Origin: Thermomicrobiales bacterium
Lineage (GTDB): Bacteria > Chloroflexota > Chloroflexia > Thermomicrobiales > UBA6265
DNA: 64,000 bases
Reading direction: 5' to 3'
NCBI GenBank assembly: GCA_030447415.1
Contig: JAUJOZ010000002.1
Coordinates: 147,351-211,350, forward strand
The notes under the pieces were generated by a model. It did no database searches. It worked only from the letters and a program-made list of their open reading frames with translations, and had not been told where the DNA came from. Below are positions 7,031 to 33,800 of the stretch, piece by piece. Numbering within the stretch: position 1 is the first letter of the stretch; each line of letters starts with the position of its first letter. A program made the translations under genes and the position numbers.

Positions 7031-8683
7031 CTAACTCGCCCGTCTGAGAAGTTGCTCTTCAATCACCAGATCCAAGGCGAGCGTTCGATAGCCGACCGTG
7101 TCGAACAGAACCACGACCTTGTCACCCTCATAGCGCATGACGAGACCGTCGCCCCAGGCGCTGTGGACGACGCGGCTGCTGATCGAGAACGGCTGGTCGC
7201 GCTCGTCCGGGGCGATGGGGACCCCGGCATCACAGACGTCGCACGCGCCGCAGGGGGGATCGTAGCGCTCACCGAAGTAGTTCAGCAGGTACTCGCGCCG
7301 GCAACCACCAGCTTCCGCATAGCCGCGCATCATCTCGATCCGTGACCGGGCGAATCGCTGGAGGTTCTCCTGGGTCTTGGCCGCTTCGTTCGCTGCCTCG
7401 CGAAGGTCGTCAGCGCTGGGCGGTCGCTCCTCAGTCGGCACAACCTCGCCACTGGGCAACATCTGCACCACGCCGACCTCTTCCAAACGGCTTAGGGCCG
7501 TCGTGACCTGCGTTGTGGAGAGTTTGATTGCGTCGCCCAACGCCTCCGGACCAAGGGGGCCGCCGTGTGCGTGGACGATGGCGGCCACTCGCTCCGTCTG
7601 GTCGACGTCAATCTGGCCCCCACTCGCGAAGAAGCGGCGGAGGTTGAGGTCCTCAGGGCGGTAAAAGAGGACTGCAGTCGCCGCGTCACCGTCGCGCCCG
7701 GCCCGCCCGATCTCCTGGTAGTAGGAGTCGATGGAATCGCTGATATCGAGGTGGAAGACGAAGCGGACGTTCGGCTTGTCGATCCCCATGCCGAACGCCG
7801 TTGTGGCGACGATTACCTCGACCTCGTCAGCCATGAACGCTTCCTGGACCCGTTCGCGCTCGCGGGCCGTCATGCCCGCATGGTAGGCGACGGCGCGCAC
7901 CCCGCGCTCGTCGAGCGCCGTGGCGACGTCCTCCGCTCGGTTGCGGGTGGCGGCGTAGACGATCCCCGGCTTGTCCGCCGCGGCGACCCGCGTCACGAGT
8001 GCCTCGCGTTTATCGTCCTCGTCCTCGAAGGTTTCGGCTCCGAGCCAGATGTTGGGCCGATCGAACCCCTGCACGACCAGCATTGGCTCCCGCATCCGCA
8101 GCCGTTCGACGATCTCCTCACGCGTCGGTGGAGCGGCGGTCGCGGTGAGCGCTAGCGTCGTCGGGCGCCCGAGCGCCTCGATGACACCGCCGAGCCGCAG
8201 GTACTCCGGCCGGAAGTCGTGCCCCCACTCGCTGATGCAGTGAGCTTCGTCGACGACGAAAAGCGATGGTTGCGCCGCCCGCAGCCGGTCAAGGGTCTCC
8301 TGGTTGGCGAACTGCTCCGGCGCGAGAAACAGGAACTCCAGGCTCCCCTCCCCAAGCTCCGAAAACGCCTCTTCGCGCTCCACCGGCCTGAGGGTGGAGT
8401 TCACCTGCGCCGCCTCGCCGACGTCTAGCTCGTCGATGTTCTCGACTTGGTCCCGCTGGAGCGCGATCAGCGGTGAGACGACAATCGTGGGACCGTCGAG
8501 GAGAGTCGCCGCGATCTGGTAGATCGCCGACTTCCCGGCGCCTGTCGGCAGCACCGCGAGGGTATCCCTTCCCGCGACGACAGCGCGGATTGCTTCCTCC
8601 TGCCCCGGTCGCAAGTCCTCGAAGCCGAACTTCTCCCGCGCGACGCGGCGAATTCGCGCCGCGCCTGGTCGTGTCCCGCCCAC
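7031..8683 (-). CDS. recQ: RecQ-family ATP-dependent DNA helicase
   Basis: PTGAGKS, DEAHCISEWGHDFRPEY, ATTAFGMGIDK, YYQEIGRAGRDG, Zn-binding CRR..CGACDVC. Confidence 0.95.
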   Translation of the reverse strand: MGGTRPGAARIRRVAREKFGFEDLRPGQEEAIRAVVAGRDTLAVLPTGAGKSAIYQIAATLLDGPTIVVSPLIALQRDQVENIDELDVGEAAQVNSTLRPVEREEAFSELGEGSLEFLFLAPEQFANQETLDRLRAAQPSLFVVDEAHCISEWGHDFRPEYLRLGGVIEALGRPTTLALTATAAPPTREEIVERLRMREPMLVVQGFDRPNIWLGAETFEDEDDKREALVTRVAAADKPGIVYAATRNRAEDVATALDERGVRAVAYHAGMTARERERVQEAFMADEVEVIVATTAFGMGIDKPNVRFVFHLDISDSIDSYYQEIGRAGRDGDAATAVLFYRPEDLNLRRFFASGGQIDVDQTERVAAIVHAHGGPLGPEALGDAIKLSTTQVTTALSRLEEVGVVQMLPSGEVVPTEERPPSADDLREAANEAAKTQENLQRFARSRIEMMRGYAEAGGCRREYLLNYFGERYDPPCGACDVCDAGVPIAPDERDQPFSISSRVVHSAWGDGLVMRYEGDKVVVLFDTVGYRTLALDLVIEEQLLRRAS

Positions 8684-8872
8684 GGGGTTCCTTTCTCTGT
8701 CTCTCTGTAGGCATCGCCGCTGAACGGCCCGGAGCCGTTGGTCGGTCGAGGTGATCGCGGAAGCGCAAGGCGGGTTCCACCACAGGAACGGCGAGCTGCG
8801 GTGGACGTGCTGGGAGTGGCACGGGTCATGCCCACGCGGCGGCGACTTGTCGGAGCCGAGAGGGGGACCCGG

Positions 8873-9223
8873 ATGAGATTCGTATCGACCAGGACGCACG
8901 GCATCCTCGACTACCTATCGGTGGGAACGCTGCTCGCCCTGCCGAGACTGCTCGGCTGGAGCAAAGACGTGACCCGGCTGCTTACCGGCGCCGCGGTCGG
9001 CACGCTCGGCTACAGCCTGCTGACACGGTACGAGTTTGGAGCCGTCAAGACGCTGCCGATGCAGGCGCACCTCACCCTGGACGGCATGAGCGGCGCGCTG
9101 CTTTGCGGCGCGCCCCTCCTCTTCCCTGATGAGGACGGAAGCGTCACCGGAGCGCTGGTTGCGCTGGGACTCTTCGAGTTGGGGGCGGCGCTGACGACCG
9201 AGACCGAGCCCAGGACGCTTTGA
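8873..9223 (+). CDS. small membrane protein (SPW-repeat-like)
   Basis: MRFVSTRTHGILDY..YSLLTRYEFG..HLTLD. Confidence 0.7.
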   Translation: MRFVSTRTHGILDYLSVGTLLALPRLLGWSKDVTRLLTGAAVGTLGYSLLTRYEFGAVKTLPMQAHLTLDGMSGALLCGAPLLFPDEDGSVTGALVALGLFELGAALTTETEPRTL

Positions 9224-9853: not shown

Positions 9854-10456
9854 ATGGCCGTGATAGACGATGTCGCCCGCGGTGAGCCGATTGGTCACGT
9901 GATCGACCTGGATCCGGCTTCCATCAACCCCGGTGGGGTGGAGCGGGGACGAGCCGGTGCCGGCCTCACCCGGCGCGACTTCTTCGACGCGGTCGTGGAC
10001 CGCCTACGCGAGGAGCTGCCCGAACCGCGCCGTGCTTTCCAGTACCGGTCCAACCCACTGCTGTTGAAGGTGGACTTCGGAAACCCGCGCGTGCATTACG
10101 AGATTTGGTGCGATGGCGAGCGCCACATCCTCGGGCTCGGGCTCCACTTCGAGGACGGTCCGCTCAGCACGGCGGCGTACCTGACCTACTTTGATCAGCG
10201 CATCGTGGAGCTGAAGCACGAGCTCGGCCCAGCTATCGAGCTCGAGCGCTGGACCGCCTCCTGGGGCCACCTCTACGAGCATTGGCCGCTCGGGACGCTA
10301 ACGGAGGCGCTGGCGGAGCGCGTCGGTCGGCGCCTCGCCCGGCTCATCACGACCTTGCAGCCGCTGGTCGAGGCAGCCGAGATCGCGCGAGAGCGGTCGG
10401 CCTTGGCTCCCGATGGAGCCGAGCGGCGCGGACCGTGGCGAAAGTGGCGGCGGTGA
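9854..10456 (+). CDS. hypothetical protein
   Basis: protein-like ORF, GC3-biased codons; VHYEIW..GLHFEDG..LERWTASWGHLYE. Confidence 0.75.
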   Translation: MAVIDDVARGEPIGHVIDLDPASINPGGVERGRAGAGLTRRDFFDAVVDRLREELPEPRRAFQYRSNPLLLKVDFGNPRVHYEIWCDGERHILGLGLHFEDGPLSTAAYLTYFDQRIVELKHELGPAIELERWTASWGHLYEHWPLGTLTEALAERVGRRLARLITTLQPLVEAAEIARERSALAPDGAERRGPWRKWRR

Positions 10457-10615
10457 TGGCGCCGCACGCCGACGAGCGTCGCACCCATCGAGCACCAATC
10501 CGGACACGGCGTTAGGGCTCCGGCTCTGGTGTCGCATTGTCCGACCCGAGGCCGCCCTTCGCCGAGTTGCGGTGGACGGCGCGGAAGCGGGACGCCGAAC
10601 TGCAGGTCCACCGGC

Positions 10616-11729
10616 TAAGCAGCCTCAGAGAAGTCTTGGACCGGTGCGTGCGGCGGCGGGGGCGGAGGTGCTGCGATGGCCCCCACCCTCGCCCCGTGCG
10701 CCGACGATCTCCGGGGCTGACCCGGACCGACCCCGACCCGCGGGTGCGTCGGCGGGCGCACGCCCTGCTGCTGGTCGCCGAGGGGCGGACCGTGGCCGCG
10801 GTCGCGCGCCTGTTCGAGACGGGGCCGAACCGCATCCCGCGCTTGGCGGGCCCGGTTTCGGCGCGGCGGCCGCCAGGGCCTCGACGACGCGCGCTCCGGT
10901 CGCCCGCCCAAGCCTGAAACGCCGCGGCGCTGGCGTTCCTCGCGGAGGCGCTGGAGGCGAGCCCCCAGGCGCATGGGCTGCCGGTCACGGTCTGGAGCAT
11001 CCGCGACCTGCGCGAGGTGCTGCGGCACGCCTGGGTGTCCGGGTCTGCACCGCGACCGTGCACCGAGCGGTGCAGCGCCGGAACCTCGAGTACCGCCCCC
11101 CCGCCACGACCTGCGGCACCGCCAGGACCAGGAGGCGTCGCGGCGGCCGAGGAGGTCCTGGCGTGGCGGCGAAAGCGTTGGCGCCCCCGGCGAACTCCGC
11201 CTCCGTTTACTTGGACGAGTGGGGTGAGGTCCACCGTCACCGCCTGGCGAAGGTGTGGCAGCGGCGGGGGTGCCCGCGCTGAGGGTGCCGGCCGCCGGGA
11301 GGACGGCAAGTTCGCCGTCTTCGGGGCGCTCGACTACGCCACCGGCCGGCTCGTCTGCCAGACCGCGGAGCACAAGGACGGCGCCGCCTTCGTCGCCTTC
11401 CTCGACCACCTGGCCGCGGCGTTCCCCGACGGGCCGCTGGTCGTGGTCCTGGACAACGTCGGCTACCACAAGGGGCGGCGCGCCAAGGACTGGTGGATGG
11501 CCCAGCAGGACCGGGTCCGCCCGCTGTGGCTGCCCGCCTACGCGCCTGAGCTGAACCTGATCGAGCGCGTCTGGCGTCACCTCAAGGACAAGCTGAGCTG
11601 CTATCGCTGGTGGGCCGACCTGCCGGCGCGGGAGTGGCCGCCGCCGCCCTCCTCGCGGACCGAGGCGCGCTTTCACCAGCCAGACCCGGGCGGCATCGCC
11701 CTGGTCCAGAACTTCTGTCAGGCTGCTTA
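10616..11729 (+). mobile_element. IS630-family insertion sequence (frameshifted transposase)
   Basis: IRs TAAGCAGCCTCAGAGAAGTCTTGGACC / GGTCCAGAACTTCTGTCAGGCTGCTTA with TA ends; DDE motifs YLDE, VVLDNVGYH, LPAYAPELNLIERVW; N-terminal RRRAHALLL HTH. Confidence 0.9.
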
Positions 11730-12532
11730 GGGCGTGTCTGCAAACCCCGCGGCGTAGCGGCCATGTAACGCCGGCCGGCCCGACGTTCGTGTGCGAGCAG
11801 ATCAGATCGCCTCGTTGGTCCGGTCCCGCGTCGTCCGGCGCGCGGGCACCGCGTCCCGGACGTCCTCGCGCGACTTCCACTCCGGTTCGGGCGGCGCGTA
11901 GTCCGGGCGCGGGGCGTAGACCGACCGCTCGACGAAGGCCATCTTGTGGATGTAGCGCGGGCAGTTGGGGAAGATCCGCTCGGCCCGCACCCGCACGATC
12001 AGCTGCGCGCCCGGCAGCTCGGCCAGCAGCGGGTCGTCGTGGACGGTAGCCGTCCCGTTGACGCGCAGGCGGCCGGGCTGCTCGAAGTCGATGAAGAGCA
12101 GCCCGACGTGGGGGTTGACGCGCAGATTGCCGAGGCTGCGGAACATGCCGTTGCCGTCGTAGTCGGGGAAGGCGAGGGTCCGGTCGTCGACGACGCGCAC
12201 GAACCCCGGCAGGCCGCCCTTGTAGGAGCAGTCGGGCCGGCCGGCGGCGTCGGCCGTGGCCAGGAAGAACATCGCGCTACGTTCGAGGAACGCCCGGTCG
12301 CGGTCGGAGAAGATCGCGTGGGCCCGGACCTCGTACAACCGGTCGGCGAGCCGCCGGGTGTCGAATTGGTCCTGCAGCTGCCGCGACCCGGCGTGGTAAC
12401 TATCGTCCTCGGGCATCGCGGGGCCCCTTTCGCGAGGGCGCCTCTGTGAACCGGAGCGGGTCGAGCGGTGCGCCATCGATCCACATCCTAGCATCCCGAT
12501 AGCGCCACGGCTTTGGCTTTGCAGACACGCCC
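11730..12532. mobile_element. non-autonomous IR-bounded passenger cassette (MIC/tIS-like)
   Basis: perfect 15-bp IR GGGCGTGTCTGCAAA / TTTGCAGACACGCCC flanked by TA, enclosing one gene and no transposase. Confidence 0.75.
11802..12416 (-). CDS. pyridoxamine 5'-phosphate oxidase-family FMN-binding protein
   Basis: FFLATADAAGRPDCSYKGGLPGFV, FPDYDGNGMFRSLGN, NCPRYIH. Confidence 0.9.
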   Translation of the reverse strand: MPEDDSYHAGSRQLQDQFDTRRLADRLYEVRAHAIFSDRDRAFLERSAMFFLATADAAGRPDCSYKGGLPGFVRVVDDRTLAFPDYDGNGMFRSLGNLRVNPHVGLLFIDFEQPGRLRVNGTATVHDDPLLAELPGAQLIVRVRAERIFPNCPRYIHKMAFVERSVYAPRPDYAPPEPEWKSREDVRDAVPARRTTRDRTNEAI

Positions 12533-12640
12533 TAGTGGTCCGTCAGCGTTGTTTTGCCACCGCATGATGGCTCGTAGAGGGCGATGCCTCGCCCATTCAT
12601 CGATGGCAGGCATGGCGAATGAGACGTGACGCACCACTAG
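12532..12640. mobile_element. 109-bp MITE-like element, CTAG-bounded
   Basis: CTAGTGGTCCGTCA...TGACGCACCACTAG terminal IR, internal hairpin GGGCGA-TGCC-TCGCCC. Confidence 0.7.
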
Positions 12641-13563
12641 CTCGCCTCGTAGCTCTTGAGGACGAGGGGCTTGGCGCGCTCCAGCTCCTCGTCGGTGTGA
12701 ACCACCACCTCCAGGTCCCCGGTCCCGAAGTGGCCGATCTTGCGCACGTCCCGGGTGAACCCGGGTTCCAGGGCGACAGAGTCCGGATCGACCTTGAGGT
12801 ACAGGCTGATGCGCTTAGCCTGGGGATGAATCTCGACGCACGCGAAGTTCTTGATCCTCCGAAACGCGAAGTAATTCTTGACCGTCTTCAGCTGCACGTC
12901 GTCCCCGAGCGCAAGCATGTACGCCTTGAGGGCTTCGTATCGGTCGCGGACGTCGACGGGCGCTTGAGCGAGCCGATCAACGATCGTGCGGCCGGCGTGG
13001 CCCTTGGAGACGGGCAGAGGGTCCGGTTTCTGGCGTCCTTCCTGGCCACTTCCATCCGGAGCGATGGCATTGACCAGTTCGAGCAAGAGCAACTCCTCGC
13101 CGAACCGGCGGTAGCGGATGAGCTCGATGCTGCGGTTGATCTGCTTGATCGCGTGCTCGTCGTACCGGGTGAAGTCGCCGGCGATGCACAGCAGGCGCGG
13201 GGTGCTCCAGTCGATCTCGGCGGCGGTTGCCTGACCCAAACGATCCATGACGAGCAGCTTGAACTCGCCGCGGTGATCCAGGAGCCAGTCCAAATAGAAC
13301 AGGCCCTGATTGATGACGTTCTGGTTGAGGGCGCGCTTGTACTCGACGATTACCGGGCTGCCGTTCTCGTCGATGCCGAGGGTATCGATCCGGCCGCCGT
13401 GGTTCTTGCCGGTCGGGTGCTCGGAGGCCAGGAAGCGCACGCCGAGGAACGCGTCGAGGTGGCGCTCGATCAGCGCCTGCAGGGACCTTTCGACGGCGAC
13501 CGAAGAGCTCTTGAGCTCCTGGACGGTGCCGCCGGCGAGGTGGAACAGCTTGGCGTCGCTCAT
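12637..13563 (-). CDS. NucS/DUF91-like PD-(D/E)xK nuclease with DUF5655-like C-terminal domain
   Basis: ERSLQALIE..RIDTLGIDENGSPVIVEYKR..QGLFYLDWL; C-terminal RDVRKIGHFGTGDLEV. Confidence 0.8.
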   Translation of the reverse strand: MSDAKLFHLAGGTVQELKSSSVAVERSLQALIERHLDAFLGVRFLASEHPTGKNHGGRIDTLGIDENGSPVIVEYKRALNQNVINQGLFYLDWLLDHRGEFKLLVMDRLGQATAAEIDWSTPRLLCIAGDFTRYDEHAIKQINRSIELIRYRRFGEELLLLELVNAIAPDGSGQEGRQKPDPLPVSKGHAGRTIVDRLAQAPVDVRDRYEALKAYMLALGDDVQLKTVKNYFAFRRIKNFACVEIHPQAKRISLYLKVDPDSVALEPGFTRDVRKIGHFGTGDLEVVVHTDEELERAKPLVLKSYEAS

Positions 13564-13696
13564 GGGCGATCCGCCTGAGCGGCAGGGGACTCAATGGGGA
13601 TCATATGTCCGATGGTAGCATCTCCACGCAAGGCCAAGACCTACCTCCTACCCTAGATCACGGCCATGCTGCGGCCCGCGCCTTTAGTGCGTGCGA

Positions 13697-13807
13697 CTAG
13701 TGGTTCGTCATCCCTGAATTGCCACCCGCCCCGACCGGACTTTAGGCCCTCCGTGGGTGTTCTGTGCTGGACGAAGGGGTGGCAGAACAGCCCTGACCGA
13801 CCACTAG
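13697..13807. mobile_element. 111-bp MITE-like element, CTAG-bounded, same end family as 12532-12640
   Basis: CTAGTGGTTCGTCA..TTGCCAC ... GTGGCAGAACAGCCCTGACCGACCACTAG. Confidence 0.7.
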
Positions 13808-13866
13808 GGCGCCAACTCCGTCCTCTGTGGCCGAGCCACCGTCGTAGAAGACTCGCTCGCGGTGGC

Positions 13867-14622
13867 TCACCCGCACGCGCAGGTCGTGTGGTTCATCGCC
13901 TCGTCGTTCGGGCACGCCTTGGCGCAGTAGGCCATCGCGGGGTCCTTCGTCAGGCAGACCTCCCCGCCGCTCGGGCAGACGCAGCTCTCAGGCTCGAAGC
14001 TCGAACACACGGCGCCGCCCACGCATGTCGTTTCGCCGCAGCGGCAGGAGCAGTCGTCCGCCCGCCTGCCCCCCTCGCCGCACGGTGGGAGGCAGGCGCC
14101 GCCGCAACGGTCTTCGTTGGCGCAGCACGCGCCCTCCGCCACGCATTGGCCGTCGCGGCAGCGCCGCTCTCCCGCCTCGCACTCGTCGCAGGGCGCATCG
14201 ACGCCAGGCACTTCGAAGTACCCGACGCAGAGGTCGGAGCACGGGAGGTCGGGCAACTGGCTCACCAGGGCGCACACGGCCACCGACGCGGCCGCGCACC
14301 CAAGGCCGAATACAGTGCACGCTGGCGTCGCTTCGACCCCGGCGGCGCACGCCGCGTTCCCTCCCGTTTGGACGGCGTCGCTCGCCGTCTCGCACAGGCG
14401 CAAGCAACGGTTGCAGGAGAAGTCGGGCAGATCGGGCCAATCGGGCAGATCGGGCCAATCGGGCAGGTTCACGTCGATGGGGAACGCGGCGGCCGCCTCG
14501 CGTTTCGACGCGACGTTGAGGCCGATGAGAGCCAACGCCCCGCCACCGACGAGCTTGAGAATCCTTCGGCGCGGCGTCGCCGCGAGGCGGCGTGCGAAAT
14601 CGTCAAACGTGTCGTTCTGCAC
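13867..14622 (-). CDS. Tat-type secreted cysteine-rich protein
   Basis: GGAGG RBS + GTG; FDDFARRLAATPRRRILKLVGG leader; PDW/PDL repeats; many Cys. Confidence 0.7.
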   Translation of the reverse strand: MQNDTFDDFARRLAATPRRRILKLVGGGALALIGLNVASKREAAAAFPIDVNLPDWPDLPDWPDLPDFSCNRCLRLCETASDAVQTGGNAACAAGVEATPACTVFGLGCAAASVAVCALVSQLPDLPCSDLCVGYFEVPGVDAPCDECEAGERRCRDGQCVAEGACCANEDRCGGACLPPCGEGGRRADDCSCRCGETTCVGGAVCSSFEPESCVCPSGGEVCLTKDPAMAYCAKACPNDEAMNHTTCACG

Positions 14623-14961
14623 GTCAGCGCCTCCTCGACTGGTCGGAAGTGAGCGCAGAGAGGAGCAGGTCACTGCAAGACGGGCTATTTGCTTGGCGTG
14701 ACGGCCATCGGCGACCCTACCACATCGAACGATCTTGTCAATCGGCGTGCGGCGCTCTGAGATTCGTCTTTCGGTGGCTGCGATGACGTGACCAACCAGC
14801 GTCGCAAGGCGGCGCGCGCTCGTCGGGGCTCCACCCCCGTCGCAACGTTGCGAGAGCCGTCGACTGGCCGCAACCACATCCCCGCTCGGAGGGAAGGCAA
14901 GCCGTCGGGTCCCTGCCCGACCGTTCGCGCTCCGTGTTGCCGCAGGCCGCCCCGACGTACC

Positions 14962-14978
14962 GGTTTGCGGACACGCCC
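14962..14978. repeat. third copy of the GGGCGTGTCYGCAAA element end
   Basis: GGTTTGCGGACACGCCC is a 16/17 inverted match to 11730-11746. Confidence 0.7.
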
Positions 14979-15197
14979 TGGTCGCGCCAGCGCCTCCCAA
15001 TGTCGCCCATGCGGCACCTTCTGACCCCGGCGCACGAACGAGCAGTACCCCTCGGATAGACCGGTCGCCTGGGCCATCGCGCGGAGCGGCACGCCCAGCA
15101 ATCGGGGGAGGATGTCGCGGGCAAAGGCCGCCAGGTCGGTCGGTTCGTCGCCGTGCTCCCGCTCCCACCGGGCGGCGACGGCGACGACGCGGCCCCC
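14979..15197 (-). pseudogene. HTH-domain gene relic
   Basis: RWEREHGDEPTDLAAFARDILPRLLGVPLRAMAQATGLSEGYCSFVRRGQKVPHGRHWEALAR, cut by the IR; no clear start. Confidence 0.55.
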
Positions 15198-15219
15198 GCA
15201 CTCAAAACGTTTTGAGTGC
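15198..15219. repeat. 22-bp perfect palindrome, copy 1
   Basis: GCACTCAAAACGTTTTGAGTGC. Confidence 0.9.
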
Positions 15220-15565
15220 CGCGCCCCTCTGAGCGCTCTCCGCCCCGCCCCCGGCCCCTGCCCCAGGTGTCATCTTCGACGATTTCTGTCGTGGATCTTC
15301 AGCACTATGCGTCGTAGTCCTTGAACGGCGCCAGACGTTCTGCTCGCAGGCCGGCTTGAGGAGGAAGGTGACACAGGAACCCAGAACTCCCCTGCCGCCA
15401 ATCGTCGTGCCCCCATTCTGTCCCCTGAGACCGACTCTGTCAGGCGAAAGGATCGGTTCCAGCGGCGATTCTGGCACGTCCCCCGCTTGACTGCGGGGCT
15501 AGGCGCCGGGATGTTGTGGGCCACCTCTTCCGGCCGATCATCGTTCTGAGCAAAGGAGCGGGGGG

Positions 15566-15945: not shown

Positions 15946-15967
15946 GCACTCAAAACGTTTTGAGTGC
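15946..15967. repeat. 22-bp perfect palindrome, copy 2
   Basis: identical GCACTCAAAACGTTTTGAGTGC. Confidence 0.9.
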
Positions 15968-20580: not shown

Positions 20581-21429
20581 ATGCCAGAGGATCTGACTGG
20601 ACCGGCCGAAAACTACCTAATCTCCGTGCCCGAGGCGGCGCGCCGGCTTGGGGTGTCGGAGGATCGCGTCCGCCAGATCGTGCGCGATCGAGGTATCCCT
20701 ACTGGCCTGGTTGGGGGGCGCATCATCTTGGACGAGAGACGCCTGCCTGAGCTTGAGCGGGCCCACGAAGTGCCGGCGAGAGGGAGCCCACGGCGGGCCG
20801 CGAGAAGCCGGAGGCGCTGGGGACGGTCGCGTGTGAAGAGCAGAGTCTGGCGGGTGCTGGGCGAGGCCGCCGTTATCACGAGCCTGTTGGCGTTCGTCCG
20901 CATTGACGCCTTCTCGATCGCCCGTGCCGTGGCGGCAGCGATGGCGGCCGGCAATGGCCTCATCTGGTGGTTGGTGTGGCGTCGCGATCGGCGCACGCAA
21001 CGACGAGACGACCCAGACACGTCGGGAGCACTCGAGACCGGCAGTCGAGTGCGCGAGGACTGGGAGGCAACACCCCAACTCAGTCCGTTCGGGATCCGCC
21101 TGCATGGCGTTCAGGGGCTGGTCGGCGCCATGTCCCTGGCCGTGCTCCTGGCATCTGCCTGGATGGAGGACTCGCCCAGTCTGTCCGAGGAGAACACGCC
21201 CACCGGAACACCGACGGCTCTGGCCAGTGCGACGCCGACCGCGACGGCAACCGCGACCCTTTCCTCAACCGCGACCGTCACACCCACTACGACCCCCACC
21301 CCTACGCCACCGCCAACGCCCACGCCGGAGTTCGTCCTCCTGCCGGAGCGCCCAGTTCTTCCCCTGCCCGAGCCCCCGCGGAACGGACGTGGGGATGCCG
21401 CCCTGTCCCCCAACCGGGGGGGAGAGTGA
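20581..21429 (+). CDS. excisionase-like HTH + transmembrane + Thr/Pro-rich protein
   Basis: ISVPEAARRLGVSEDRVRQIVRDRGIP; 2-3 hydrophobic segments; TPTPTPPPTP tail. Confidence 0.6.
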   Translation: MPEDLTGPAENYLISVPEAARRLGVSEDRVRQIVRDRGIPTGLVGGRIILDERRLPELERAHEVPARGSPRRAARSRRRWGRSRVKSRVWRVLGEAAVITSLLAFVRIDAFSIARAVAAAMAAGNGLIWWLVWRRDRRTQRRDDPDTSGALETGSRVREDWEATPQLSPFGIRLHGVQGLVGAMSLAVLLASAWMEDSPSLSEENTPTGTPTALASATPTATATATLSSTATVTPTTTPTPTPPPTPTPEFVLLPERPVLPLPEPPRNGRGDAALSPNRGGE

Positions 21430-30814: not shown

Positions 30815-33800
30815 ATGAGCAGCCGCAGTCTCAGCCGCAGCCCGTTCCTCGACCTCGCGCGGGAGCGCGTCGTCGTCTACGACGGGGCGATGGGGACCTC
30901 GGTCCAGGCGTATAGCCTCGACGCGGCCGGGTACGGTGGGATTGAGGGGTGCAACGAGTATCTGGTCTTCCACAACCCCGGGCTGATCGAAGCGATCCAC
31001 GCCTCGTTCCTAGAGGTGGGGGTCGACATCGTCGAAACCGACACCTTCGGCGGCAGCCGTCTCAAGCTGGAGGAGTACGGGCTCGGCGAGCGGACCTACG
31101 AGCAGAACCACGAGGCCGCCCGCCTGGCCCGCCGGGTGGCGGACCAGTACACCACTGCCAAGCACCCCCGCTTCGTCGCCGGCTCGATTGGACCGACGGG
31201 GCTGCTGCCGGCCTCGGAGGATCCGCTGCTCGGCAATGCCCGCTTCGGCGAGGTCGTCGACCTGTTCCTCGACCAGGTACGGGGCCTGGTCGCCGGGGGC
31301 GTCGACGTGCTGATCATCGAGACGACCCAGGACATCCTGGAGCTCAAGGCGGCGGTCCACGCCGCCCTCCGCGTTCGCGAGGAGACGGGCATCTTCGTCC
31401 CCATCCAGGCGCAGGTGACGCTCGACACCAGCGGGCGGATGCTCCTCGGGACCGACGTCGCCGCCGCCCTGGCCGTGCTGGAGGCGCTACCGGTCGACGT
31501 GATCGGGCTCAATTGCTCGACCGGGCCGGAGCACATGCGCGAGCCGGCGCGGTACCTGGGCGAGCACGCGACCAAGCCGGTCTCGATCATTCCCAACGCC
31601 GGGTTGCCGCTCAACGTCGACGGTAAGGCCGTGTATCCCCTGGAGCCCGAGCCGATGGCGCGGGCGCTCCGCGAGATGGTCGAGACGTTCGGGGTCGGGC
31701 TGGTCGGCGGGTGCTGCGGCACGACGCCGGAGCACCTCGCGGCGACCGTGCGCGAGATCGGTCGACGGCCGGCCGTGGCCCGTCCGATGAAGCCGCTTCC
31801 ACTGATCGCGAGCATGGTGCGGGCGGTCGACCTGCACCAGGACCCGGCGCCGCTGATCGTCGGCGAGCGTGTGAACACGCTCGGCTCCCGCAAAGTCAAG
31901 CGCCTGGCGCTGACCGACGACTACGACGGCATGGTGACGGTGGCGCGAGGGCAGATGGAGGAAGGGGCGCACGCCCTCGACGTCTGCGTGGCGATGACCG
32001 AGCGGACCGACGAGCGGGAGATGCTGCGCCAGCTCGTCAAGAAGCTGGCCCTCAACGTCGAGGGCCCTTTGGTGCTCGACTCGACCGAGGCCGATGTCAT
32101 CAAGGACGCCCTGGAGCAGTACCCCGGGCGGGCAATCGTCAACTCGATCAACATGGAGAACGGGCGGGCCCGGATCGAGGCGGTGATGCCTCACGCGATC
32201 GCGCACGGCGCCGCGGTCGTGGCGATGACGATCGACGAGGAAGGGATGGCGAAGACGGCCGAGCGCAAGCTGGCCGTCGCCCGGACGATTCACCGGATCG
32301 TCACCGAGGAGTACGGGCTGGCGCCGGAGGCGCTGATCTTCGACACCCTGACCTTCCCGCTCTCGACGGGCGAGGAGGAGTTCGTCCGCTCGGCGATTGA
32401 GACGATCGAGGGGATTCGGCTGATCGAGCGGGAGCTGCCGGGGGTGTTGACCATCCTCGGCATCTCCAACGTGTCGTTCGGGCTCAACCCGGTGGCGCGC
32501 AAGATCGTCAACGCCGTCTTCCTCTACCACGCGGTCCGGGCCGGGCTCGACATGGCCATCGTCCACCCCTCGCACGTCGTCCCCTTCGCCGAGATCCCGG
32601 CCGAGGAGCGGGAGCTGGCCGAGGATCTCGTCCTGGCGCGGCGGCCGGACGCGCTGGCGCGGCTGATTGCGTTCTTCGAGGGGCGAGAGGAAACGAACGA
32701 CGGGGCGACGGGTCCCGACCCGATGATCGGGATGGGACCGGCGGAGAGGTTGCACTACCGGATCCTGCACCGCAAGAAGGAGGGGATCGAGGACGACATC
32801 GACCTTGCCGTCGCCGAAGCGGGCGATCCGGTCGACGTCCTGAACAACGTCCTCCTGCCGGCAATGAAGGAAGTGGGAGACAAGTTCGGGGCGGGCGAGC
32901 TGATCCTGCCGTTCGTGCTGCAATCCGCCGAGGCGATGAAAAAGGCCGTGTCGCGGCTGGAAACCTATCTGGAGAAGCAGGAGGGGGTGACGAAGGGGAC
33001 GGTGGTGCTGGCCACCGTCTTCGGTGACGTCCATGACATCGGCAAGAACCTGGTCAACACGATCCTGACCAACAACGGCTACACCGTCCACGACCTCGGC
33101 AAGCAGGTGCCGGTCAACCGGAATCATCGAGAAGGCGGTCGAGACGAACGCGACGGCGATCGGGCTGTCGGCGCTGCTCGTCTCGACGAGCAAGCAGATG
33201 CCGCTGTGCGTGCAGGAGCTGCACCACGGCGGGCACCGCTTCCCGGTGATCATCGGCGGAGCGGCGATCAACCGGGCCTACGCCCAGCGAACCCTGTTCG
33301 TCGACGAGCAGACCCCCTACGAACCGGGCGTCTTCTACGCCAAAGACGCCTTCGAGGGGCTGTCCCTGATGGACCGCATCGTCGACGCGACGCGACGCGA
33401 CGAGCTGGTGCGGACGACGGTCGAGACGGCCCGGGCCGCGCTCGGCCGACCGGGCCGGACTGCGTTCAGCGTGCCGGCGGAGGCGGCGGCGACCGAGGGC
33501 GCGACGGTGCGCCGGGTCGATCCGCCGCCCCCTCCCTTCTGGGGCGTGCGGAGATGGAGCCGATAGATCTCGACGACGTGTGGCCGTGCCTCGACCTGAA
33601 GACCCTGTTTCGCCTCCACTGGGGCGGCAAGGGCTCAAGGACGAGGCGTGGGAGGCGCTCCAGCGGAACGAGTTCCTGCCGCGGCTGCGGGCGATGCAGG
33701 AGGCGGCGAAGTGCGATGGATGGCTCCAACCGCGCGTCCGCTACGGCTACTTCCCGGCCAACGGCGAGGGGAACGATCTGGTCGTCTATAGCCCCGACGA

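Follow-up and report, generated by a model that had tools for sequence, protein, structure and literature searches.

Organization of the array

The window considered here is a 64,000-nucleotide stretch of contig C108 in the genome assembly of a Thermomicrobiales bacterium (G000; 5.23 Mb in 125 contigs, 69.5% G+C). At 10616-13806 lies a row of short units bounded by inverted repeats: an insertion sequence (IS) of the IS630 family (element A), a cassette that lacks a transposase and carries a single gene of the PNPOx family (element B), and a miniature inverted-repeat transposable element (MITE; element C1), with a sister MITE (C2) on the far side of a nucS-like gene (Table 1). A sequence-only reading of the same DNA had taken this row, together with the cysteine-rich (Cys-rich) protein gene beyond it, for an integron-like system of gene cassettes. 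The present analysis argues with good confidence for a different origin, namely a pile-up of transposable elements whose transposases come from two unrelated families with a common target, the TA in CTAG, without a dedicated cassette system.

All of the pieces described by the sequence-only reading were located in the sequence, and the units bounded by inverted repeats at 10616-13806 were confirmed with positions shifted by 1-2 bases. Its description of each joint as a shared (C)TAG held in part. The TA is common to the two neighbors, but it is the only sequence that they have in common, as the preceding C and the following G are the neighbors' own terminal bases. The joints in the window array read CTAG or TTAG, and the ends of all three families (A, B, and C) are flanked by TA in a CTAG context. 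Two stop codons fall on joints, as had been noted. The stop of the nucS-like open reading frame (ORF), at 12637-12639, is made up of the final C of C1 and the TA at 12638-39, and the stop of the transposase frame of element A (11017-11730) comprises the TA and the first G of the cassette. A scan of 10400-15300 for promoters and terminators found none.

Logan contigs from three runs of one study (X1-X3), which may be the source sample of the genome, span every joint of the array. The joint of host and IS630 element is crossed in record 1, that of IS630 element and cassette in records 5 and 13, and that of cassette and MITE in records 7, 8, 15, and 20, with record 8 reaching position 15265. As these contigs bridge each joint, the array is not a mis-join of this assembly, and an assembly artefact was ruled out.

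Table 1. Features of the array and its right flank (window positions)
Feature	Position	Strand	Remarks
TA target duplication left of element A	10616..10617	.	host side ...CCGGC-TA
Element A, IS630-family insertion sequence, 1110 bp	10618..11727	+	
TA common to A and PNPOx cassette	11728..11729	.	with G11730, stop of the A transposase frame
Element B, 803-bp cassette without transposase	11730..12532	.	IS5-family ends GGGCGTGTCTGCAAA
PNPOx-family cargo gene, 205 aa, intact	11802..12419	-	PF01243
TA common to cassette B and MITE C1	12533..12534	.	
Element C1, 103-nt IS630-type MITE, without ORF	12535..12637	.	ends GTGGTCCGTCA / GTGGTGCGTCA
nucS-like / DUF5655 gene, 308 aa	12637..13563	-	PF18899
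Element C2, 105-nt sister MITE	13700..13804	.	TA at 13698-99 and 13805-06
Cys-rich protein gene	13867..14625	-	no family match
Solo IS5-type end GGGCGTGTCCGCAAA, facing left	14964..14978	-	

The cassette ends and their IS5-type family

The two ends of element B (11730-11744 on the plus strand and 12518-12532 on the minus strand) agree at 20 of their first 25 nucleotides and have TA on both sides. The end motif has three matches in the window compared to 0.30 expected, and none of 100 shuffles reached three. In the whole genome, there are 80 matches at up to 2 mismatches; when up to 3 mismatches are allowed, 58 matches are flanked by TA and 22 inward-facing pairs are found. The sequence-only reading had noted that the only transposase present has ends other than GGGCGTGTCYGCAAA, but these ends are not an unknown family. 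Elements with B ends encode an IS5-family transposase (NF033580, 204 bits at locus L003, 159 at L012, and 146 at L043; PF13340, DUF4096), and the GGGCGTGTCYGCAAA ends are therefore those of IS5-family elements with a transposase encoded elsewhere in the genome.

The same ends are found well outside this genome. The family comparison covered 107 other genomes, all from other genera; its tallies include five genomes flagged as unpublished (G006, G010, G036, G051, and G110), on which no specific claim rests except for L263 (G051), one of five homologs of a short-chain dehydrogenase (SDR) gene without B ends. With one mismatch allowed, the 17-mer of the B end was found in 31 of 101 family genomes, compared to a single match in total for the reversed control. 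In relatives, pairs of B ends about 860 bp apart hold a transposase only (L043-L045). Among the matches listed, the exact 17-mer occurs, by record title, in Streptomyces, various cyanobacteria, Myxococcales, Cohnella, and metagenome-assembled genomes of Chloroflexota and Thermomicrobiales, and B therefore belongs to a widespread group of the IS5 family. Exact pairs of B ends 160-210 bp apart are also among the matches listed, in Moorena, Myxococcales, and Streptomyces (L145, L168, L170, L175, L205, and L214), and MITE forms of this IS5-type group are therefore found in several phyla.

Within the genome, B ends bound IS copies, elements that combine an IS with a passenger gene, 146-bp MITEs, and single-gene units without a transposase. 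Seven of the 22 pairs show likeness to a transposase, four are 146-287 bp long, and the remaining 11, of 632-1441 bp, are free of a transposase. Among the seven, four have a clear extra gene, which encodes an alpha/beta hydrolase in three of them (all full sites) and an APH-type kinase in the fourth, and the others are a GDPD gene with a transposase remnant, an 854-bp IS, and a methyltransferase unit with a weak remnant. All 11 transposase-less units contain an ORF, and six have a cargo identifiable with Pfam: an SDR, a methyltransferase, a cupin, a glyoxalase, an ABC-2 permease, and the PNPOx protein of the window. The earlier proposal that GGGCGTGTCYGCAAA ends bracket single cargo genes without a transposase was thus well founded for half of the end pairs in this genome and for more in the relatives, where B ends enclose a transposase with an isochorismatase, a transposase with a GNAT protein, and a transposase-less DUF4268 unit.

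The 1.8-kb element composed of the transposase and the alpha/beta-hydrolase gene is present in three full copies and one copy at a contig end, which are 97-98% identical and all lie at different TA-G flanks; it provides firmer evidence for mobility of the B family than the PNPOx unit does. The cargo genes themselves have relatives outside such elements. No B ends were found around homologs of the alpha/beta hydrolase (L254 and L257) or of the SDR (L261-L265) in related genomes, and homologs of the PNPOx, SDR, and hydrolase cargoes with 68-79% DNA identity lack B ends there, which makes the cargo genes look like ordinary chromosomal genes that have been captured. In one relative (L038; G020:C85, at about 1638-1660), a B-ended unit lies within an IS630-type transposase frame, at a CTAG. 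This nesting has the opposite direction to the joints of the genome studied here.

The PNPOx cassette

The cargo of element B is a protein of the FMN-binding split-barrel family (PF01243, 1.5e-18), and full-length relatives with 61-72% identity occur at 80 metagenome loci. A tblastx comparison of B with three autonomous IS copies showed no likeness to a transposase. Element B thus combines IS-type inverted repeats, a passenger gene, and a target duplication with the absence of a transposase, which are the hallmarks of a mobile insertion cassette, and it is the only bounded cargo cassette of the window array. The sequence-only reading was right that a cassette of this kind would need a transposase supplied in trans. 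We infer that B is mobilized in this way: it would move only if an IS5-family transposase from elsewhere in the genome acts on its ends. Candidate sources of this transposase would be C42, C79, and C106, each of which has a 1.8-kb copy, or C98 with its own copy.

The cassette recurs with about 95% identity in a metagenome from a different study (run X5), whose contigs are 93-98% alike to the window only over 11728-12535, which covers the TA, the unit, and the following TAG, and then continue for 216 and 183 letters that are unlike the window. Depth in this run is 20-59 inside the PNPOx unit, about 5 on each of the two flank contigs, and near zero over the rest of the window, including the neighboring bins. 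The pattern is suggestive of a discrete PNPOx unit that sits in other contexts.

The IS630-family element and the MITEs

Element A has arms of 34 nt with 82% complementarity (I5), and its terminal inverted repeats are about 32 nt long. Its transposase matches PF13358 (DDE_3) with 92.7 bits at C108:158592-158948. Against the IS630-family profile NF033545, the window copy scores 96.1 bits, just below the cut-off of 100, and other copies in the genome reach profile scores of up to 114.6 bits. There are 13 further near-full copies with 87-96% identity. The window copy is probably defective, as its transposase is broken over two frames (10537-10917 and 11017-11730) and it has at least 12 insertions or deletions relative to high-depth consensus contigs. 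In all 25 of the TA-flanked A ends in the genome, the next base outward is G, and the target of A is therefore CTAG. With a DDE_3 transposase, inverted repeats, TA duplication, and a preference for CTAG, element A is a member of the IS630 family.

The transposase frame of A extends to the last base of the element, and its stop codon is formed by the duplicated TA and the next base of the target. Because this stop uses the target G, correct termination of the frame depends on insertion at CTAG. On contig C107, the first 52 nt (20877-20928) and the last 51 nt (31874-31924) of A are found 11 kb apart, both 100% identical and flanked by TA, and neither is adjoined by the interior of A. This pair could be a unit with A ends and a large cargo, or a copy of A into which 11 kb of other DNA has inserted.

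C1 and C2 belong to the IS630-type MITEs. They are small and non-coding, have inverted repeats, and carry TA on all four sides, with the TAs of C1 at 12533-34 and 12638-39; the two lie in opposite orientations and have about 62% identity. Their ends (GTGGTNSGTCA, with a sub-terminal TTGCCACC) resemble those of a DDE_3 element of 1228 bp with flanks CTA...TAG (C85:77329-78556), to which the end match extends up to 30 of 45 nt. Relatives of C1 are found at C79:396786-396885 (80%) and on C76 (74%), and the copy number of the type is low, with about 5 relatives in the genome.

Shared-TA joints and probable stacking at rebuilt CTAG sites

The row in the window is one of several. The genome holds 15 joints at a shared TA, of which eight are between A and B, four between B and C-like elements, two between A and C-like elements, and one between two C elements; there is no joint between two B elements. 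All 15 include an IS630-type end and 12 include an IS5-type end. The proposal of the sequence-only reading that new units insert at the TA beside an earlier unit was borne out by these joints. The B elements of the eight A/B joints are unlike one another in their inner sequences, and the joints therefore arose in separate events. Further arrays are present on C4 (a B cassette, A, and an IS630-type element), C70, C85, C89, C104, C106, and C111, and on C79, where a C-type MITE lies between two B elements and the TAs have decayed. In this last array (L011, C79:394988-402200), the right end of the glyoxalase-carrying B cassette, the MITE, and the left end of the next B element abut at about 1780-1910 of the locus; the TAs of the joints are mutated to GA and TT, and a copy of A and a DUF4096 remnant are found 3 kb further on.

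Nine A copies lie beside B-type ends, eight of them clearly and one, on C17, weakly; in other terms, eight of the 13 full-length copies and one partial copy sit exactly beside an IS5-type end. For nine of 14, the binomial tail is 2e-14 if all CTAG sites are taken as equal, 6e-12 over about 1800 sites, and 9e-8 over 600 usable sites. The figure of about 1800 is that of non-coding CTAG sites, of which about 44 are beside B ends, and was obtained with a crude coding mask that covers 56% of the genome.

The terminal bases of the elements offer a simple account of these joints. CTAG is rare in this genome, with 3401 sites in 5.23 Mb, or about a quarter of the number predicted from base composition. 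Both B (GGGCG...) and C (GTGG...) start with G and end with C, and insertion of either into C-TA-G therefore rebuilds CTAG on both flanks; TAG is indeed read outward at 36 of the 58 TA-flanked B ends. A rebuilt CTAG beside an existing element would cost the host nothing if it were hit again. IS630-type elements would thus land repeatedly at the CTAG rebuilt beside B or C, because the site is rare elsewhere and costless to the host there. The first base of element A is an A, which leaves CTAA and TTAG at its flanks; once in place, the element would close the site on its side.

Joints of this kind are also found in two other genera, in which an IS630-type element and an IS5-type end adjoin with one TA in common (L270 in G057 and L271 in G044). 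In the search of relatives for joints between B and C, the total of matches was about equal to that of the control, and these two alone were counted as real. Two other candidates for such joints, L272 and L273, were rejected as IS630-type elements beside host DNA.

At the locus itself, A, B, and C1 most likely entered one original CTAG (...CCGGC-TA-GCTCGCC...). Before the insertions, the triple site would have read ...CCGGCTAGCTCGCC..., and its CTAG would have extended into the nucS-like stop codon. The site would have lain in the spacer that separates two convergent genes, one on the plus strand (9854-10456) and the nucS-like gene on the minus strand (12637-13563). Element A would have arrived last at its joint, because A needs CTAG and a B element arriving beside an existing A would have used TTAG. 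C2, which lies 135 bp upstream of that minus-strand gene, is read as an insertion of its own.

Alternative explanations

The integron-like system envisaged by the sequence-only reading, in which every new single-gene module would join at the TAG that the one before had left and the PNPOx, nucS-like, and Cys-rich genes would all be cargo, now appears highly improbable. Several features are consistent with it: the modules abut without a spacer, all three genes lie on the minus strand, B ends bracket single genes at many loci, a GGGCG stands directly after C2 and its TA, and there is a third B-type end beyond the Cys-rich gene. However, none of the 18 matches to the tyrosine recombinase family PF00589 in the genome is on contig C108, the three end types are those of ordinary IS families for which the genome encodes transposases, and the choice of TA in CTAG by IS630-type elements accounts for the stacking. 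Most of the other arrays in the genome are IS beside IS instead of rows of cargo. Nor do the two remaining genes look like modules. On either side of the nucS-like gene there is a complete MITE with a separate pair of TAs, instead of one pair of ends around the gene, and homologs of the gene in relatives match in the coding part only and show no flanking repeats; on this comparison, it is most likely a resident gene between two MITE insertions. The Cys-rich gene, which had been viewed as a closed cassette, has one good end only: in a comparison by eye, the candidate left end (GGGCG, 13807-11) fits only 7 of the 15 positions of the B consensus, and the right end is flanked by CA instead of TA. 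No convincing partner was found for that end (14964-78), which appears to cut a minus-strand ORF running from 15101 downwards and appears to be a remnant.

A related possibility is that larger composite units have moved: C1 and C2 together with the nucS-like gene (12535-13804), a 3.25-kb element formed by the B ends at 11730 and 14978, which would carry the PNPOx, nucS-like, and Cys-rich genes, or both. C1 and C2 are in inverted orientation with like ends outward and TA outside both, and their likeness (88% over 34 nt) runs into matching flanks, CGCCC-TA and TA-GGGCG (I3). The arms at 11729-11746 and 14962-14979 are 94% complementary (I23), the title of one paper reports that IS630 forms composite transposons targeting CTAG, and the nucS-like gene is present twice in one of the relatives (G015). 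These points are outweighed by others, which leave a composite origin quite unlikely. Neither composite has a second copy in the genome, in the relatives, as noted, likeness to the nucS-like gene is confined to its coding part, and the end at 14978 has CA/TG in place of TA. Furthermore, the likeness to the X5 contigs ends at 12535, and the 803-bp unit is therefore the one seen elsewhere.

Somewhat unlikely, but to be taken more seriously than either of these, is the view that CTAG sites are hit at random and that only insertions beside existing elements survive, with no preference of the transposase for element ends. It agrees with the flanks of A copies that do not abut other elements, which share nothing beyond CTAG, with the position of the window site between convergent genes, and with the requirement of IS630 for only the TA in CTAG, as given in the title of a paper. 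On the other hand, the nine of 14 A copies beside B ends lie far above chance even over the roughly masked non-coding sites. B is the most numerous family and also targets CTAG, yet no joint of two B elements was found, which a purely passive model gives no reason to expect; this absence argues weakly against such a model. An opposite and more speculative proposal is that in this bacterial family the IS5-type transposase maintains a pool of single-gene cassettes, made of ordinary chromosomal genes captured between its 17-nt ends, whose rebuilt CTAG sites serve as preferred landing pads for IS630-type elements and other cassettes, so that rows grow at a few sites without an integrase through a real preference for ends. 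This proposal seems unlikely.

Several observations weigh against the preferred explanation, the pile-up of elements from two transposase families at a common target, or against parts of it. About 30 of the CTAG sites next to B ends are unoccupied, and the flanks of IS630-type copies not abutting other elements contain no motif extending beyond CTAG. Target preference and selection could each have produced the excess of joints, and we consider that sequence alone does not separate them. Matches to A/B joints in relatives were found only at 2 mismatches and in numbers no greater than those of the reversed control, and these joints may be private to this genome. TA is present on both sides of only 13 of the 22 B pairs, which indicates decay. 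The evidence for mobility of the PNPOx unit is only suggestive, because it is drawn from a single run and because assembled contigs often end at repeats. The cassette is single-copy in the genome, and it was not found in the 107 other family genomes, where the best DNA match (77%) is confined to the coding part; no B ends were found around the PNPOx homologs in G040 and G001. Likewise, no B end adjoins the PNPOx gene at any of the 80 metagenome loci; L058 and L113 each have one stray 2-mismatch match, far from the PNPOx match. The 107 genomes provide no readable empty site, because these relatives are too distant and the common gene order extends only to the gene at 9854-10456; we thus infer both the reconstruction of a single CTAG and the order of arrival. 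Finally, the assembly is 86% complete and 6% contaminated and is divided into 125 contigs.

Relation to known systems

Mobile insertion cassettes (MICs), of which MIC231 of Bacillus cereus is an example, offer the closest comparison for element B. The terms MIC and transporter IS appear in passages by the authors of ISfinder and ISsaga (PMC3129680), and two further papers concern Tn3-like MICs of Xanthomonas (PMC4337579) and a qnrS2 mic of Aeromonas (PMC5444012). As in MICs, the IS-type inverted repeats studied here bracket one or more passenger genes without a transposase, and related IS elements with a transposase are found in the same genome; as with transporter IS, copies of the IS with an extra passenger gene are also present. 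Compared to the known MICs, the ends here are of the IS5 family, mobilization is a prediction, and a single genome contains 11 units that lack a transposase and carry different single genes, in addition to five forms that combine a transposase with a passenger.

As for element A, Tenzen and Ohtsubo are said to have reported in 1991 that IS630 inserts at the TA in 5'-CTAG-3', including as composite transposons. Duplication of TA upon insertion is attributed to IS630, Tc1, and mariner in another source (PMC2170065). Element A resembles this group in its target choice, with a DDE_3 transposase, inverted repeats, TA on both sides, CTAG in every TA-flanked case, and MITE derivatives. It differs from IS630 elsewhere in that most of its copies lie beside IS5-type ends and in that a stop codon is obtained from the duplicated TA. 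In the open-access literature, no account was found of IS630-type elements favoring IS5-type ends, and none of IS5-type cassettes in this bacterial group.

Insertion next to the ends of another element has a further parallel. IS4321 and IS5075, which are of the IS110/IS1111 type, insert in the inverted repeats of Tn21-family transposons and recognize a long sequence inside the repeat. In both cases, an IS recurs at a constant place with respect to the terminal repeats of another, unrelated kind of element. Unlike with IS4321 and IS5075, insertion here is outside the repeat, at the flanking TA, and no extended recognition sequence was found. Integron arrays are similar in that single-gene units lie side by side without a spacer and without a recombinase of their own. 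In contrast to integrons, the search for tyrosine recombinases found no integrase on the contig, the units have inverted ends instead of imperfect-palindrome attC sites (no attC model was applied), and the joints are target duplications of transposition. The array is thus made of known kinds, namely a mobile insertion cassette, an IS630 element, and MITEs, in a new stacking through a shared target that is rare and rebuilt.

Transposase-less cassettes are known mostly from a few cases, and the 11 units with different everyday enzymes in one genome, together with the forms that pair a transposase with a passenger and the further units of relatives, would make this IS5-type group a useful natural model for the capture and spread of single genes by insertion sequences. 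Ends that start with G and rebuild their own CTAG provide a simple reason for end-to-end stacking in G+C-rich genomes. For annotation, such joints can be read as successive insertions, and the genes that they flank need not suggest a new cassette system.

Neighboring genes and other repeats

The nucS-like protein matches PF18899 at 3.5e-11 and NucS_C at 4.2e-4, the latter below the cut-off. The Cys-rich protein has no match in Pfam or NCBIfam. It has a signal-like N-terminal stretch of RRR followed by hydrophobic residues, and just after it a repeat of PDWPDL that is encoded by an exact 18-nt tandem duplication at 14423-14458.

To the left of the array, the order of the genes at 7031-8899, 8738-9223, and 9854-10456 is common with two relatives (L266, G020:C247; L267, G024:C8). 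It stops at 10456, and window ORFs between 10456 and 21000 have no match in these two loci; the array is therefore at the edge of a variable region. To its right, a perfect 22-nt palindrome, GCACTCAAAACGTTTTGAGTGC, occurs at 15198-15219 and again at 15946-15967, 748 nt apart, and brackets a small module. The genome has eight copies of this palindrome at up to 3 mismatches, three of them on C107 with CCTAGG directly before.

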